This document shows, one piece after another, positions 1 through 5,646 of a DNA stretch of 28,386 bases (position 1 is the first letter of the stretch; the number at the start of each line of letters is the position of its first letter). Both the position numbers and the translations under genes were made by a program. The DNA is from Promethearchaeota archaeon. GTDB lineage: Archaea > Asgardarchaeota > Lokiarchaeia > Sigyniarchaeales > SOKP01. The notes under the pieces are model-generated. The model saw nothing but the letters and a program-made list of their open reading frames with translations, did no database searches and was not told the DNA's origin. The stretch is from assembly GCA_016926735.1 (NCBI GenBank), contig JAFGOA010000234.1:1-28386 (forward strand), in the 5' to 3' direction.

Positions 1-123
1 AATATTATAGGATATTTTTGGCGCCTTTACATTAAAATTAATGTAATATCTTGTATATTTATTAAAATATTCCCTAAAGTTGGGATTTTAGAATTATTCT
101 AATATTAAAAAGAAAATTTTTAA

Positions 124-200
124 AGGTTTATGGTCCAAGAATAGGATATCTCTGCCACAGAGAAGAAGGTGCAGGTCGAGGCAGGGGCCTGCTAAATCTA
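124..200 (+). ncRNA. tRNA-like cloverleaf 1 (aberrant anticodon arm and T loop)
   Basis: Acceptor AGGTTTA(124-130)/TAAATCT(193-199); D stem GTCC/GGAT; hairpin TCTCTG-CCA-CAGAGA; T stem GCAGG/CCTGC with a 12-nt loop and no TTCRA motif. Confidence 0.55.
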
Positions 201-248
201 AAAGAAATTTTATTAAATATTAAATAATTGAAATATATTTAAAATCTA

Positions 249-316
249 TGGTTTCTCGTCCAATGGGAGGATACCCCTGTTCAGAGGGAGATGAAGGTTC
301 AATTCCTTCGAAATAT
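249..316 (+). ncRNA. tRNA-like cloverleaf 2 (Glu/Asp-like body, 6-nt anticodon loop)
   Basis: GTTTC(251-255)/GAAAT(310-314); D arm GTCC-AATGGGA-GGAT; CCCT-GTTCAG-AGGG; short variable region; canonical T arm GAAGG-TTCAATT-CCTTC. Confidence 0.7.
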
Positions 317-359
317 AATTAGATTAAGAATAGAATAAATCTCAGCCAATATATGATCT

Positions 360-431
360 TGCTTGTAGTCTAAGATGGTAAGATTTCCCTCCATCAAAGA
401 GGAAGATATGGGTTCGAATCCCATCAAGCAC
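360..431 (+). ncRNA. tRNA-like cloverleaf 3 (TCA at the anticodon position, A instead of U33)
   Basis: TGCTTG(360-365)/CAAGCA(425-430); T8-A9; D arm GTCT-AAGATGGTA-AGAT; CCTC-CATCAAA-GAGG; perfect T arm ATGGG-TTCGAAT-CCCAT. Confidence 0.8.
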
Positions 432-483
432 TAAAGATTTAGTATTGGATGAATCATTTGGTTTAGATTATAATGATTTGATA

Positions 484-570
484 TCATTCTTCCTCTTGAA
501 GTTGCCCTCAATAAAGGGAAAAATGAACTAGTACTCCTAAGTAAGGAGATTATTAGGCTTCAAGAAATGA
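484..570 (+). ncRNA. putative three-way-junction RNA domain between the tRNA-like units
   Basis: TCTTGAAGTT(494-503)/GGCTTCAAGA(556-565) encloses hairpins CCCT-CAATAA-AGGG and CTCCT-AAGTA-AGGAG; outer TCATT/AATGA pairing. Confidence 0.4.
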
Positions 571-626
571 CTAAGCCGTTTCTTGTTGAAAAATAACATT
601 TACCCTTGACAATTGAGGGATCATTA

Positions 627-695
627 TGCTTGTAGTCTAATGGGAAGATTCCCCTCAAGGAGAAGGGAGATATGGGTTCGAATCCCATCAAGCCA
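627..695 (+). ncRNA. tRNA-like cloverleaf 4 (near-duplicate of unit 3, 8-nt anticodon loop)
   Basis: GCTTG/CAAGC acceptor; D arm GTCT-AATGGGA-AGAT; CCCT-CAAGGAGA-AGGG; T arm identical to unit 3. Confidence 0.75.
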
Positions 696-776
696 CTATG
701 AATATTATAAAATTAATTCCTTTTTTCCTTCTGGTTCCATAAGAGATTGTTAGATTTCTTCGATATTTATTTTTTA

Positions 777-1451
777 TTAAATTTCTTTTCTAAAACTTTC
801 GAATATTGAAAAAGTTCCAATAATGAATAATATTGGAGCCAATAAATTGAAAAAACTAAATAAATTAGAATCATCAAATAAGAAAATTAAGATTTCTTTT
901 TCCAAAATAGATCCAACTGCAAACAATAACACCCCTGCTAAAATAAATAAGAATTTTTTTTTTATAACATGACTTCTCTTGAAAATAAATAGTAAGAATA
1001 AATAAGGGATGAAAGAACAACATAGAATGATAAATGAAAACAAGTAGATAGGCATTTCTATAAAGAATAACATTATTCCTAGAATCATTGGAATGATCCC
1101 CCCAAAATAATGTCTTTCATATGTAATTTTTTCCATTACTTCTTCTAAATGTATTATCTTGTTCCAATAAGCAAATAGTAGTATGAAAAATCTGACCTTA
1201 AGGAGAATGAGGGATATTGAAATATTAAAACTATAAACGATAGAAAGGACTGCAATCATACTTGAAATTCCCATCATGAAAAAGAACATTTCCCAAGAAA
1301 AAAGATCATTATAAAAATGAAAGTGCTGCTCTTTTGAAAATTTCTTTTTGATATAGAGCTTGTTAATGATTATCAGAGAAATCATGAAAGAAAAAGCAAT
1401 ATTAACTGAATATAATACCACGGTGATCATCAAGATATCTAAATTTATCAC
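777..1451 (-). CDS. polytopic membrane protein (~6-7 TM), unknown function
   Basis: 224-aa ORF, GTG start, repeated long hydrophobic segments; 4 nt downstream of the nitroreductase gene, so probably co-transcribed. Confidence 0.75.
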   Translation of the reverse strand: MINLDILMITVVLYSVNIAFSFMISLIIINKLYIKKKFSKEQHFHFYNDLFSWEMFFFMMGISSMIAVLSIVYSFNISISLILLKVRFFILLFAYWNKIIHLEEVMEKITYERHYFGGIIPMILGIMLFFIEMPIYLFSFIILCCSFIPYLFLLFIFKRSHVIKKKFLFILAGVLLFAVGSILEKEILIFLFDDSNLFSFFNLLAPILFIIGTFSIFESFRKEI

Positions 1452-1455
1452 CCCA

Positions 1456-2760
1456 TTAAAAATTTAAATTATTTTCAAAATAAAATAATAATATGGGTTC
1501 CAAATGACTTACCAGCGATAAATGCTCATTTTTTGCCTTATTTGCTAAATTCTCTGCTAAATTGTTAATTTCATTCTCCGCAGAATCGAGATCAAGTAAT
1601 TTTCTATATTTGGGATCTTTTGGATTAGAGATGATATGCTTTTTCCATAGTAAACCTAATGCATTTGCTTGCAATTGTAATCCTGCTAATGCCATCCCTG
1701 CTTCAATTTCTGCCCAATTCGTTACATCCAATATTTTACTATGAAAGAACCCAGAACATGGTTTCTTCCTATCCATGCATAATAAGATTAAATAATTGGT
1801 ATATTTCACCGAAAATTCATTTTCTATCTCATCTTTATTAGTAAGAGTACTATATTTTTGAAGGAAATGATCATAAGTAATCTGATCATTGATTTTTACC
1901 CAGCGATTTAACGCAGAAAACCCCACAGGATTGTAAAAATATGCTCCTTTTGAAATATCTACAAGTTCATCAATCATAACTATCGGATATATTGAATATC
2001 CCGCACATCCAGAAGCATGAACCCGACCATATCCATTCTTTTCTAATCCATCTCGATTACCATGAGCAGCATGATCAGTTTCTCCCTGACAAGCCCAGAG
2101 TAATTGTGATATCTCATTAAGGTTCTTATTATTCGGAGATTTTTTATCCATTTCATTAAATATGGCTTTATCTAATTCAATTCCCTTGTAAATTCCTTTA
2201 TAGAGTGCCCGATCCTCATAGCATTTAGGCATTTCTAACATGATGGTGCCTTCCTTTAAATCACAATGGTATGGATCGGTCTTATCTTCAATTAAAGCAC
2301 CAAGGTCTCTTTCACGAACAGCCACAGAATATAAAAAGAGATGCTCTTGATTAGTTATTTCATTAATTATTTTATTAACTTTCTTGGGACCCATTGCTCG
2401 TTGGGATACTCCTAATCCCAAGCTTTCAACTTTCAAAGATAAATATTGCCAACTAAGACCTATCCTAATTAAATCTTCTATATCAATATTATCCTTTTTG
2501 ATTAATTCTGGATATATTTCCATTGTGTATTTTGTTTTTTGATTTTCTGTTAATAGGTTCAATCCATCATCATTATATTTGTAAATCCCTCCCTTATAAT
2601 CTCTACCATCGGGTAAAACAATAAATAAGTCATTCAATGGCGCAGCTTGATACGTACTTTTACAGATATTCATGATTTCGGGCTTAGATAAAACTTTTCC
2701 CTTGCCTGAACAATCCTTTCGACTAGCTAAACACCCTTGCAGGCTCATTATTTTCTCCAT
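1456..2760 (-). CDS. SagB/ThcOx-type nitroreductase-family protein with a degenerate N-terminal second domain
   Basis: Motifs EISQLLWACQG, R-x3-SG-x-AGY, GAYFYNP and EAGMALAGLQLQANALGL match the SagB pattern; N-terminal half has GGIYKYN and GLSWQYLSLKVESLGLG. Confidence 0.75.
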   Translation of the reverse strand: MEKIMSLQGCLASRKDCSGKGKVLSKPEIMNICKSTYQAAPLNDLFIVLPDGRDYKGGIYKYNDDGLNLLTENQKTKYTMEIYPELIKKDNIDIEDLIRIGLSWQYLSLKVESLGLGVSQRAMGPKKVNKIINEITNQEHLFLYSVAVRERDLGALIEDKTDPYHCDLKEGTIMLEMPKCYEDRALYKGIYKGIELDKAIFNEMDKKSPNNKNLNEISQLLWACQGETDHAAHGNRDGLEKNGYGRVHASGCAGYSIYPIVMIDELVDISKGAYFYNPVGFSALNRWVKINDQITYDHFLQKYSTLTNKDEIENEFSVKYTNYLILLCMDRKKPCSGFFHSKILDVTNWAEIEAGMALAGLQLQANALGLLWKKHIISNPKDPKYRKLLDLDSAENEINNLAENLANKAKNEHLSLVSHLEPILLFYFENNLNF

Positions 2761-2924: not shown

Positions 2925-5033
2925 ATGTTAAAAAATTCACAATTGGATCCTAGAGAGCTTGAATTCATCAATAAAATAGAAAAATTAACAAGAGTTAGAT
3001 GTTATCCAAAAGATAAGATTAATTGGAATAGTAAAAAATTAGATGAGGAAAAACCAACTAATGCAATTTTTAATATTGTAATTAAAAATGAAAAAATTAC
3101 AGAATTCCTTATTTTAGGAGCTAAATTTGAAGATTTTCCAGAATTTAATAATATTTTGGATAACTTAAAGATTTTCTCTGTTATTAGATCATATTTAAAG
3201 GAGATCCCTGAATCATTATTTAGTTTAAAGAATTTAACTCAGTTAAATTTATCATATAATGAAATTAAAGAAATGCCAAAATCTTTTGAAAACTTAAAAA
3301 ATCTAACAAAGATAAATTTCAAACACAACTATTTAACAACAATTCCTGAAGAAATCATAAATCTTCCCCAATTAAAATCTCTTATAATTCAAGGAAATCC
3401 TATTGAAGAGTTTCACCCTAACTTCCCAAATTTAAATAATTTAATTAATAAATATCATAAAAAGGGTTTAAATAAATTAGAATCAGAAGTATTAGCACAA
3501 CTTGAATTGATATCAGGGGTAAAATTAAAACAAGTTTATCATCGGGGGATATTAAATGGGTATTATATCAAAAATAACTCAATAATATGGCTAAGATTAT
3601 TCAGTGTAAGTCTTAAATCTTTACCCAAAAATATTTCGAATTTAAAAAATATTACCTGTCTAAATCTTTCTGGAGATCCTCCACATGAAGAAGAAGGTAT
3701 AATAGGAGAGAGAAATGGTTTACAAAAGCTCCCTAAATCTATTGGTCAATTAGAGAAATTAAAATGGCTCTATCTCTCAAAATCACAATTAAAATCCATA
3801 CCATCAGAAGTAGGAGATCTTTCAAATCTTCAACAATTATATCTAGCAGACAATTTTCTTGAAGACCTTCCAGAGTCTTTAAAGAATTTGATTTCTTTAA
3901 AATATTTAGATATTCAAAAAAATCATCTTGAAAAAATTCCTATATGGATAGGAAATCTTAAAAATCTTCAAAAATTGAATTTTGGACATAATAAGATAAA
4001 AGATATTACTAATGAACTATCAAATTTACATAGTTTAAATTATCTAATGCTTAATGATAATTTTATAGAGATCATTCCAGATTCATTTGGTAAACTTAAT
4101 CAATTAATAAAATTAAATTTATCAAATAATGTTTTAACTTCAGAATCTTTGATTCCTATCTACAGGTTAAAAAATCTAAAGGATCTTAATATCTCAAATA
4201 ATAGGGATATTTCCTACCTATCAGAAGATATAGGAAACCTGAATAAATTAAAATCTCTAAATATTAATGATAACCAGTTTCACTCAATTCCAACTTCTAT
4301 ATGGAAATTAAAGAATTTAAACTCACTTATTCTCCGAAAAAATCCTTGGGATGATGAAACATCAGAACTTATTAATCGAGATCTACAATTTATTTTAGAG
4401 TATTGCAGAAAAAAAGCGAATATACATATCTTTTTCAGTCATGCTGTTGAAGATTTTAATAGATTTAAATTGCAGGAATTAATAAATTTCTTGGAGGGCC
4501 AATCTGAGATATATGAAGTCTTATATTGTGAAAGAGATCTAACAGGAAATATTGACCAATTTATGCGAGAAAATATTCCTAAAAGCAATCTTTTACTATT
4601 TTTTGCAACAAAGAAATCCGTTTTTGATTCAAAAGATTGTCAGACAGAAATAAAATTTGCACGAGAAAATGATATTGAAATTATTCCTATAAGAACAGAT
4701 GAAGTGAATTGGGATGATTTGAATAATGTAGGTTTAAAAAGAGAATTAGGTAAAGATTATAATACAAATTTAGATTATTTTGGAGATGACCTTTATAAAT
4801 ATATAAAAAACTTTAAACATAATATAAATCTTTTTGAAAAGGATAAGGCAAAAATAGATAAGATAAAATTCAAAATTAAAAACGAATATGAAAGAATAAT
4901 AAACTCAACAATAGTGGATAACTATTTAATAAATAACTATACTAAAATCTTAGAAAAACTCGATGATAATAAGACCTATAAAGAAAATATATTAGAAATT
5001 TTTAAGAAATTAATGGAAATAAAAAATAACTAA
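2925..5033 (+). CDS. leucine-rich repeat protein with C-terminal TIR domain
   Basis: Many LxxLxLxxNxLxxLP repeats in two blocks; C-terminal IFFSHAVED…LLLFF…SKDCQTEIKFA…IIPI is a TIR/TIR_2 signature. Confidence 0.9.
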   Translation: MLKNSQLDPRELEFINKIEKLTRVRCYPKDKINWNSKKLDEEKPTNAIFNIVIKNEKITEFLILGAKFEDFPEFNNILDNLKIFSVIRSYLKEIPESLFSLKNLTQLNLSYNEIKEMPKSFENLKNLTKINFKHNYLTTIPEEIINLPQLKSLIIQGNPIEEFHPNFPNLNNLINKYHKKGLNKLESEVLAQLELISGVKLKQVYHRGILNGYYIKNNSIIWLRLFSVSLKSLPKNISNLKNITCLNLSGDPPHEEEGIIGERNGLQKLPKSIGQLEKLKWLYLSKSQLKSIPSEVGDLSNLQQLYLADNFLEDLPESLKNLISLKYLDIQKNHLEKIPIWIGNLKNLQKLNFGHNKIKDITNELSNLHSLNYLMLNDNFIEIIPDSFGKLNQLIKLNLSNNVLTSESLIPIYRLKNLKDLNISNNRDISYLSEDIGNLNKLKSLNINDNQFHSIPTSIWKLKNLNSLILRKNPWDDETSELINRDLQFILEYCRKKANIHIFFSHAVEDFNRFKLQELINFLEGQSEIYEVLYCERDLTGNIDQFMRENIPKSNLLLFFATKKSVFDSKDCQTEIKFARENDIEIIPIRTDEVNWDDLNNVGLKRELGKDYNTNLDYFGDDLYKYIKNFKHNINLFEKDKAKIDKIKFKIKNEYERIINSTIVDNYLINNYTKILEKLDDNKTYKENILEIFKKLMEIKNN

Positions 5034-5055
5034 TAAAAAGTATGAGCGTTAAAAA

Positions 5056-5646
5056 ATGAAGTTTATAGTAGATGATATGTTTGGAAATGTAGCAAGATGG
5101 TTAAGATCTTTAGGTTATGATGCTATTTATGCTGGGACATTCTCTTCAAATATTAAAGAGGAGAAAAAAATTAGTGAAGAGGAATTAATAGAAAAATGCT
5201 TGAATGAGCATCGTATATTAGTAACCCGTGATATAAAGTTGATCACTTCTCTTGAAACTCAATTTTTCAAGAAAATGGAAGAAAATCCCAAAGAATATGA
5301 AAAATTTGAAATGTCTATTTCTAATGAATATGGAATTATTTCTCCTTGTATTTTTCTTAGAGAAACCGATACTTTAGATATTATGAAAAGAATATATCAA
5401 GAATTTCATATTAATCTTACATACGATACAGATAAATCAAGATGTTCAAAATGTAATACTAAAATTATTAAAATTATAAGAAAAGAAGATTACAAACATC
5501 TTATACCAGAAGGTGTGTATAATTATCAAAAAGACTTTTGGATTTGTCCAAATAAAGATTGTGAACAATTGTACTGGAAGGGAATTCAAGTAAAAAATTT
5601 TGCAGAAAGAATAAAAAAATTAAAGACACATCAATTATCATCTTGA
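5056..5646 (+). CDS. Mut7-C RNase domain protein (PIN-like, DUF82) with Zn ribbon
   Basis: KFIVDDMFGNVARWLRSLGYD, ILVTRD, SRCSKCN, FWICPNKDC…LYWKG. Confidence 0.9.
   Translation: MKFIVDDMFGNVARWLRSLGYDAIYAGTFSSNIKEEKKISEEELIEKCLNEHRILVTRDIKLITSLETQFFKKMEENPKEYEKFEMSISNEYGIISPCIFLRETDTLDIMKRIYQEFHINLTYDTDKSRCSKCNTKIIKIIRKEDYKHLIPEGVYNYQKDFWICPNKDCEQLYWKGIQVKNFAERIKKLKTHQLSS

Follow-up and report, generated by a model that had tools for sequence, protein, structure and literature searches.

Apparently Non-Decoding tRNA-Shaped Elements Accompany a Conserved Structured RNA in an Asgard Archaeal Genome

Introduction

Four tRNA-like cloverleaves stand on the plus strand within the first 700 bases of a 28,386-base contig of a Promethearchaeota archaeon (JAFGOA010000234.1; this whole stretch of DNA, at its full length, is called the window below). 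The question that they raise is what such units are kept for if their anticodon arms do not look fit for decoding. An original prediction, made from the letters of the window, had taken them for four equivalent tRNA-shaped modules in which the elbow was spared and the decoding arm was hit each time, and had treated the 433-625 interval as a mere spacer. We found that this interval is the most conserved element of the locus. It holds a real, previously undescribed structured RNA with good covariation support, here named X. The tRNA-like units around it are apparently non-decoding, tRNA-derived and kept for their shape. Together they probably constitute a processed RNA operon, the use of which is possibly immune-related.

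The Array and Its Relatives

The genome of the window (G000) comprises 3.88 Mb with 26% G+C and is 99% complete. The window is the entire contig C62 and the array lies at the contig edge, so part of the array may be missing on its 5' side. Other genes of the window are archaeal chromosomal ones (GGGP synthase, UbiA prenyltransferase, geranylgeranyl reductase, SecY, and ribosomal proteins L11, L1, L10, and P1). The comparison covered three congeners (G001, G002, and G003) and relatives in other genera (G150, G129, and G151), that is, seven genomes of four genera. Two models were built, R2 for the tRNA-like family and R1 for X. The covariance-model search for homologues that had been proposed with the original prediction proved productive, since it returned further arrays in G150, G129 (two arrays), and G151. 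The three congeners carry the same locus, G003 as two tandem modules and G001 and G002 as one each. Moreover, a DNA run of a related strain links base 694 back to base 1, matching the tandem modules of G003; on these two grounds the data suggest that contig C62 begins inside a tandem-module duplication. The elements of the array in the window are the following.

1..122, plus strand: conserved leader or promoter-like region, with a GGCGCC block, then an inverted repeat and AT-rich, TATA-like stretches
123..201, plus strand: t1, a degenerate tRNA-like element (cloverleaf by minimum free energy (MFE), z -2.18; without Rfam match)
248..317, plus strand: t2, a tRNA-like element (Rfam tRNA 28.7 bits against a gathering score of 29)
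359..432, plus strand: t3, the best-conserved tRNA-like element (Rfam tRNA 39.3 bits; ARAGORN default call Asp(atc))
433..625, plus strand: X, a conserved structured non-coding RNA of about 190 nt (core about 474-620), from comparative structure
626..696, plus strand: t4, a tRNA-like paralogue of t3 (Rfam tRNA 35.0 bits over 628-693; ARAGORN default call Pro(agg))
721..726, plus strand: a six-T run after t4, read from the sequence as a possible archaeal termination signal

A Conserved Structured RNA between the tRNA-Like Elements

Nine copies of X were found in the seven genomes of the four genera. In its RNAalifold structure, a helix of 505-512 with 611-618 closes the fold and encloses two further helices as well as hairpin 1 and hairpin 2. 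The MFE z is -3.09. In the alignment of the nine copies 90.5% of the cells were paired, and changes on both sides occurred at 21 of 48 pairs; none of 500 shuffles scored as high, and slid controls reached 33-47%. It should be considered that the alignments used for pair counts, of X as well as of the tRNA-like units, were fitted to the models and are therefore biased toward the structures. Identity of the X core between G000 and G001/G002 was 0.83-0.86, while that of the spacers was 0.52-0.64. The loop of hairpin 2 (ACUAAGC) was kept in seven of the nine copies; its stem was wholly replaced in one of the two G129 copies (G129a) and reduced to three pairs in G150. Hairpin 2 also holds a nine-codon open reading frame (ORF; window 570-599), which is conserved within the genus and not in G129, G150, and G151, and which we read as a by-product of RNA conservation. 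Inspection by eye, not computation, found no covarying complementarity between the loops of X and the anticodon loops of the tRNA-like units.

No Rfam family matched X at gathering or E-value thresholds in the window and the six related loci. Signal recognition particle (SRP) RNA and RNase P RNA were considered as identities of X and rejected, as the SRP RNA of this genome lies on contig C171 and its RNase P RNA on C228. A sample of 151 genomes from the order contained X in 6, to which G151 is added; a search under strict filters of 126 genomes that represent 26 further families of the phylum did not find it. Among the genomes searched, X is restricted to one Asgard family. All nine copies lie within arrays of two to five tRNA-like units. 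Every copy has such a unit upstream, abutting in six cases and about 30-70 nt away in three; downstream, one or two units follow in five copies and a T run in the other four.

Anatomy of the tRNA-Like Elements

The cloverleaves t2, t3, and t4 are real at the places originally predicted, while t1 is one by its MFE fold only. The T stems (GCAGG, GAAGG, and AUGGG twice) and the D stems (GUCC/GGAU in t1 and t2, GUCU/AGAU in t3 and t4) could be read in the sequence as described and are paired, and three acceptor stems are short indeed (7, 5, 6, and 5 bp from t1 to t4). Anticodon loops of 3, 6, 7, and 8 nt are likewise obtainable, none of them standard. A 7-nt loop with both U33 and purine 37 in standard geometry is found in no unit of the window; the reading G-U-UCA-G-A of t2, with U33, requires a register in which the variable region shrinks to 2 nt. 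The elbow formed by the D-loop GG and the T-loop UUCRANY is intact in t2, t3, and t4, but not in t1. Single-sequence folding energies of these three units are unremarkable (z -0.68 for t2, -1.20 for t3, and +0.19 for t4), so the case for them rests on covariance-model scores and comparative data. ARAGORN called t3 and t4 as Asp and Pro by default, and t2 only in relaxed mode and with a two-base anticodon.

Units differ widely in preservation. The MFE fold of t1 has a 7-bp acceptor stem, a 4-bp D stem, and a 6-bp anticodon hairpin with a 3-nt loop; the alternative anticodon loop is GCCACAG (C33). Its T stem pairs (GCAGG/CCUGC), but the loop closed by it counts 8-12 nt and is not tRNA-like, hence its elbow is not preserved. 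The Rfam tRNA model did not match t1 even at E<=10, and its 50.8 bits with R2 come from a model whose training set included t1. Identity of t1 to G001/G002 is 0.59-0.69, about the rate of spacers, and its 3' half is unalignable there. A well-formed orthologue exists in G129, with the loop GCCAUAG and an encoded CCA. t2 has a 5-bp acceptor stem, standard D and T arms (T loop UUCAAUU), and a 6-nt anticodon loop (GUUCAG); it scored 65.3 bits with R2, its identity to G001/G002 is 0.75, and the G001 orthologue carries a Phe-like loop (UUGAAAG). In module A of G003, inspection by eye showed no pairing in the acceptor stem of t2. The acceptor stem of t3 counts 6 bp, and its U1 is mismatched with C72; the D loop is canonical and contains GG, the T loop is UUCGAAU, and the stem that carries the anticodon loop CCAUCAA (C33) includes a C/A mismatch. 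The identity of t3 to G001/G002 is 0.84-0.86. t4 has a 5-bp acceptor stem and either the loop CAAGGAG (A33) or an 8-nt loop, and is 85% identical to t3 over 75 nt. It is present only in G000 and G003; in G001 and G002, X is followed by the T run. Judging from these comparisons, t4 is a recent, lineage-specific copy of t3, and t1 is a decaying member. The four modules are therefore not equivalent as had been supposed: t2 and t3 are conserved, t1 behaves like a spacer, and t4 is a copy. By the same token, the statement that the elbow was spared and the decoding arm hit each time applies to t2, t3, and t4; in t1 the T loop is ruined.

Two further readings of the units were tried and rejected. A repeat or mobile element was rejected because the units have no other copy elsewhere in the G000 genome. 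For an intron or split tRNA, ARAGORN with introns fused t3 (5' half) and t4 (3' half) into a 'tRNA-Pyl' with a 245-nt intron; this call is an artefact because t3 and t4 are 85% identical, and there is no room for an intron because every unit already has full tRNA length. We also noticed an extra unit, 't0' (loop CCGUCAU), upstream of t1 in G002 (L010 4848-4920, minus strand), with a weak counterpart in G001 (L011 3484-3556). Its equivalent in G000 would precede base 1, in the assembly gap.

Selection on the Fold and the Free Anticodon

Helices were counted over 33 distinct tRNA-like sequences from the seven genomes, with 500 shuffles and slid controls for comparison. Paired helix cells amounted to 91.5%; no shuffle was as high, and slid controls gave 29-45%. 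Acceptor pairs 3:70-7:66 were kept in 31-33 of the 33 sequences and the D and T stems in 30-33, with changes on both sides at 10 of 16 pairs. At the top of the acceptor stem, pair 1:72 was unpaired in 25 family members and 2:71 in 10, while 1:72 was paired in 24 of 25 canonical tRNAs of the G000 genome. CCA is encoded directly after position 73 in four relatives, so the tRNA register is normal and the top pair is truly mismatched. A hand-made alignment of the family gave the same pairing picture, and many pair types per position were plain in a MAFFT alignment. Repair of the mismatched 1:72 from the 5' side by a Thg1-like enzyme was excluded, because the enzyme is missing from the genome: PF04446 (Thg1) was unmatched in the 99% complete G000, and a control search was positive in Methanosarcina.

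In t3, 15 of 75 columns vary across G000, G001, and G002, and the 10 stem positions of the anticodon arm as well as loop positions 32, 33, 37, and 38 are invariant. Two of the three positions 34-36, however, vary, the triplet being AUC in G000, CAC in G002, and ACC in G001. Compensatory changes within the genus were found at pairs 7:66 and 49:65. Similarly, the units G129b_2 and G151_2 have common anticodon stems and different loops. Stems and elbow would thus be kept while the anticodon is left free, which is the reverse of what is seen in decoding tRNAs. The predicted non-decoding nature of these tRNA-shaped modules is supported by their relatives in seven genomes, by compensated helices, and by non-canonical loops that differ between orthologues.

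RNA Evidence and a Model of Processing

We propose that the units and X are parts of a single non-coding unit. Its tRNA-derived, non-decoding modules would serve RNase P and tRNase Z as punctuation in a precursor and so lead to the release of X. According to this model, tRNase Z would cut after t3 (about 432/433) and RNase P before t4 (about 625/626), which would free X with defined ends; in genomes without t4, the oligo-T stop would end X instead. Selection would keep those parts that RNase P and tRNase Z read, namely acceptor pairs 3:70-7:66, the T arm, and the D/T elbow. Co-transcription as one precursor, cleavage by both enzymes, and any cellular role of X are features of this model that we infer. 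RNase P RNA is present in the G000 genome. That the units might be RNase P/RNase Z signals had already been suggested; the anatomy agrees with it, as t3 and t4 bracket X and assembled contigs bridge the units, and no cleavage site was seen.

Those contigs come from two metatranscriptome studies that contain the stretch. In one RNA run a 207-nt contig corresponds to 448-654 with three differences, and in another nine contigs tile 1-693, including spans 154-506 and 400-693. They bridge t2-t3-X and t3-X-t4, though DNA in RNA libraries is possible and a single transcript, its strand, and its ends are not thereby given. Three RNA runs have no cover of 700-1500, which is not evidence of a transcript end. 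Contig depth is highest over 1-150, and contigs cover the leader and extend upstream of base 1. The leader may act as a promoter. Its blocks are invariant among the four members of the genus and partly common to G129b and G151; its overall identity to G001/G002 (0.63-0.67) is like that of spacers. At window 20-50, the GGCGCC block and the inverted repeat (TTACATT ... AATGTAA) are genus-invariant and recognisable upstream of the G129b and G151 arrays; this block might serve as a promoter element or represent another RNA element. At the other end, T runs of 6-11 close the arrays in G001, G002, G150, and G151, and this evidence is weak because such runs are common at 26% G+C.

Several observations weigh against punctuation as the whole explanation. 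One upstream unit would be enough, while the arrays comprise two to five. With 5-6 bp, the acceptor stems are weak at their top, a feature that would not be expected to favour either enzyme. The linker from t3 to the X core is poorly conserved (0.58-0.63). In the three species, 0 of 14 columns of the t3 anticodon stem and loop flanks vary, and punctuation alone needs no such constancy. The RNA evidence consists of assembled contigs, in which neither a mature X nor a mature tRNA-like species was seen, and DNA may be present in the libraries. Finally, canonical loops that include U33 and purine 37 occur in every one of the four units of G129b (Phe, His, Phe, and Cys), from which it follows that the family descends from working tRNAs and in places may still include some. 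We therefore regard the processing model as the best-supported reading, with no better than even confidence, because cleavage is unseen, the arrays contain surplus units, and the t3 anticodon stem is over-conserved. The G129 genome has its two arrays at 346-1018 and 4454-5196 of one locus (L087, G129:C169), each with its own copy of X; one is upstream of the LRR-TIR gene described below and the other downstream of the MUT7-C gene, and the downstream one is the array of four canonical-loop units.

Linkage with LRR-TIR and MUT7-C Genes

Downstream of the array two genes follow on the same strand, one of them for a protein with leucine-rich repeats (LRR).

2925..5033, plus strand: LRR protein with a C-terminal TIR-like domain, 702 aa (Pfam LRR families; TIR_2)
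5056..5646, plus strand: stand-alone MUT7-C protein, 196 aa, the last gene of the cassette (Pfam PF01927, 110.5 bits)

TIR_2 scored 32.4 bits (cut-off 28) over residues 490-702 (213 residues) and 30.7 bits in G001; the orthologues in G150 and G129 are 66-68% identical in the TIR-like domain and fall below a reported TIR_2 score. Only seven relatives of this domain were found in a collection of 5.8 billion proteins. Two of them carry precomputed PF13676, one of these being also named a TIR domain protein. PDB sequence searches with the TIR-like region gave no match. The TIR assignment thus rests on Pfam scores just above the cut-off and on named homologues.

The N-terminal 70 residues of LRR-TIR were matched in 6 of 135 family genomes (G000, G001, G003, G129, G150, and G151), and all six carry X. 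The array lies upstream of the LRR-TIR gene in six of the seven X genomes, and MUT7-C comes next in the four that have enough contig. MUT7-C orthologues with 60-79% identity were confined to G001, G150, and G129, where they immediately follow the LRR-TIR gene. The distance from the array to the LRR-TIR start is 70-365 nt, on the same strand, in G001, G003, G129, G150, and G151, and 2.2 kb in G000. There, two opposite-strand ORFs (777-2760, minus strand) lie in between, in a place that in G003 is a gap of 365 nt; one (224 aa) has no family match and the other (434 aa) a weak SagB-like match (42 bits, cut-off 78.4). The pair looks like a recent insertion, found in G000 only. In G003 and G001 the gene order is amidohydrolase, RibD_C, two radical-SAM genes (CofH type), array, and 702-aa LRR protein. 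MUT7-C was seen after the LRR gene in G001, and the G003 contig ends inside the LRR gene; in G000, CofH stands at the end of another contig. MUT7-C was not found in the 89% complete G003 genome, and a TnpB-like gene (Cas12f1-like TNB, OrfB_IS605) at L100 1079-1957, minus strand, stands there directly after LRR-TIR, at the expected place of MUT7-C. In G002 the LRR-TIR gene is gone, an S15 peptidase gene stands in its place, and a MUT7-C remnant (G002:C224:3953-4132, L097; 72% identity over residues 134-193, two TAA stops) adjoins a well-kept t2-t3-X. Because flanking genes differ between genera, the array, X, LRR-TIR, and MUT7-C give the impression of one block whose parts are moved or retained jointly.

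Searches outside these loci were negative. None of 26 other family genomes had a tRNA within 1.5 kb of CofH in a CofH-anchored synteny search. MUT7-C homologues of genus g2 (36-41% identity) had no array within 1.5 kb, and a 55% LRR-TIR homologue (L105) had no array within 5.4 kb upstream and no MUT7-C nearby. PADLOC gave no match for four proteins.

Alternative Explanations

The alternative that survives best is that the tRNA-shaped RNAs, with or without X, are partners of LRR-TIR and MUT7-C, acting as ligands, as baits or decoys for tRNA-directed nucleases, or as an RNA inhibitor of MUT7-C. Decoys had already been suggested with the original prediction, and the linked LRR-TIR and MUT7-C genes would lend that idea a context. 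The locus would then be an immune-like or toxin-antitoxin-like cassette with the variable anticodon-like loops as its business end. We consider it unlikely, but the over-conserved t3 anticodon stem and the gene linkage keep it alive. The same-strand position of the array before LRR-TIR in six genomes speaks for it, as do the confinement of the LRR-TIR N-terminus to X-bearing genomes of four genera with different flanking genes, the occurrence of cassette-type MUT7-C only there, the TIR_2 domain itself, and the conserved anticodon stem with its variable loop centre. The role of prokaryotic MUT7-C is unknown according to the available text of one report, in which the authors speculate on RNA binding (PMC11347159), and this would suit such a partnership. 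On the other hand, the evidence is association alone, drawn from genomes whose relatedness makes them non-independent. In G002, t2, t3, and X are well conserved although LRR-TIR is gone and MUT7-C is a remnant, the G000 array is split from LRR-TIR by two opposite-strand genes, and the more distant homologues of both proteins have no arrays beside them. The lack of a PADLOC match counts against it as well, and the units are heterogeneous, unlike the near-identical repeats of known RNA antitoxins.

Canonical tRNA genes of the same genome bear on this point. Contigs C157 and C42 hold 26 clustered canonical tRNA genes for all 20 amino acids, of which 25 are intron-less and the one for Phe has an intron, in the following arrays.

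C157 7086-8394, minus strand: canonical tRNA array
C157 12331-13605, plus strand: canonical tRNA array
C42 7266-7742: canonical tRNA array

A 1031-aa LRR gene lies between the two C157 arrays. A place beside LRR genes may therefore be a general habit of tRNA arrays in these genomes, which again weakens the case for a partnership. Arf/Roc GTPase and WD40 genes lie near, and these surroundings point to the host chromosome, not a virus. Many dispersed tRNAs of G000 are about 100 nt long and intron-bearing. With this full canonical set elsewhere, the units of the window are extra.

A more elaborate version, to which we give somewhat less credence still, is a four-part Asgard cassette of tRNA-shaped RNAs, X, LRR-TIR, and MUT7-C. 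In it a Toll-like LRR-TIR and an RNA-binding or nuclease-like MUT7-C would act on, or together with, dedicated tRNA mimics. The mimics could, for example, be baits that through their variable anticodon-like loops report or absorb a viral attack on tRNAs, or ligands that restrain the TIR effector.

It is just as doubtful that the tRNA-like elements are decaying copies of a former tRNA array, with X, if anything, the only functional part. Such decay fits t1, which drifts at the spacer rate and is half unalignable in the congeners, and it fits the lost acceptor pairing of t2 in G003, the absence of t4 from two of the four congeners, the loops broken in different ways, and the full canonical set elsewhere. 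Nevertheless, t3 is as conserved as X, and t2 is more conserved than spacers. Compensatory changes keep the acceptor, D, and T helices across 33 sequences of four genera, the T loops and D-loop GG are intact in t2, t3, and t4, and the 1:72 mismatch is a common feature (25 of 33) rather than random damage. Pure decay would thus explain t1 and not t3.

Genuine decoding by tRNAs with unusual loops (C33 or A33, 6 or 8 nt), for instance in recoding or frameshifting, is very improbable: t3 and t4 exceed the Rfam gathering score, CCA is encoded in four relatives, and the G129b loops are canonical, but the t3 triplet changes among three congeners with the rest of the arm unchanged, U33 is missing in t1, t3, and t4, pair 1:72 is mismatched, C157 and C42 provide canonical tRNA genes for each of the 20 amino acids, and A34 anticodons (atc, agg) are not expected in archaeal tRNAs.

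If the processing model is true, the locus offers a natural archaeal case of tRNA-shaped units kept for shape, with selection inverted relative to tRNAs, and X would be a covariation-supported structured RNA without an Rfam family. Both RNAs would moreover be tied to a very rare LRR-TIR and MUT7-C pair, and the role of prokaryotic MUT7-C is left open in the available text on it (PMC11347159). The Asgard LRR-TIR architecture bears on the origin of Toll-like immune proteins. Should the four-part cassette prove true, the closest archaeal relatives of eukaryotes would possess an innate-immune module armed with RNA, and prokaryotic MUT7-C would have its first natural partner.

Comparison with Known Systems

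One comparison is within the genome itself. The canonical arrays of G000 resemble the array of the window in being clustered, same-strand, and intron-less, with short spacers and LRR genes beside them, and the tRNA-like family probably derives from tRNAs of such arrays. In contrast, the canonical genes have 7-bp acceptors, standard loops, and Rfam scores of 43.6-66.2 bits, whereas the units of the window score 28.7-39.3 bits, have a mismatched 1:72 and non-standard loops, and enclose X. In type III toxin-antitoxin systems (ToxI), tandem near-identical short repeats stand directly upstream of an endoribonuclease toxin gene. The units described here are heterogeneous (85% between t3 and t4, far less among the others), and the next gene is LRR-TIR, not the nuclease-like MUT7-C. 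The precursor of the phage T4 tRNA cluster also carries non-tRNA stable RNAs that are freed by tRNA-processing enzymes; its tRNAs decode, the context is a phage, and there is no relation to X.

Other parallels come from elements that punctuate other transcripts. As far as the available text of the report goes, RNase P and tRNase Z of Haloferax volcanii cut at the borders of tRNA-like elements, and thereby free an RNA placed between a pair of them and set its ends (PMC4946936), and plant mitochondrial t-elements act likewise (PMC1920247, available text). Like the array of the window, these are non-decoding tRNA-shaped units flanking another RNA, in what would for the window too be one transcript, but their neighbours are mRNA, rRNA, or crRNA, and here the neighbour is the novel structured RNA X. 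The window further differs from t-elements in having several full cloverleaves in an array, conserved anticodon stems, and the link to LRR-TIR and MUT7-C, and its cleavage is a prediction of the model. mascRNA and menRNA (of MALAT1 and NEAT1), as far as they are described in the available text, are also cloverleaves with a poor anticodon arm, stand at the end of a non-coding RNA, and undergo the processing by the tRNA machinery that is proposed for the window (PMC12941219, PMC9777231). They belong to mammalian nuclear long non-coding RNAs and are single 3' units, whereas the units of the archaeal array surround a short RNA from either side; their sequences are unrelated. Literature searches, supplementary files not being covered, returned no description of the array, X, or the cassette. 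We conclude that tRNA-like processing units are a known kind. What is new is an array of complete cloverleaves in an archaeon, in which anticodon stems are conserved, loops vary freely, and pair 1:72 is systematically mismatched; the structured RNA X and the link of both to the LRR-TIR and MUT7-C pair are new as well.

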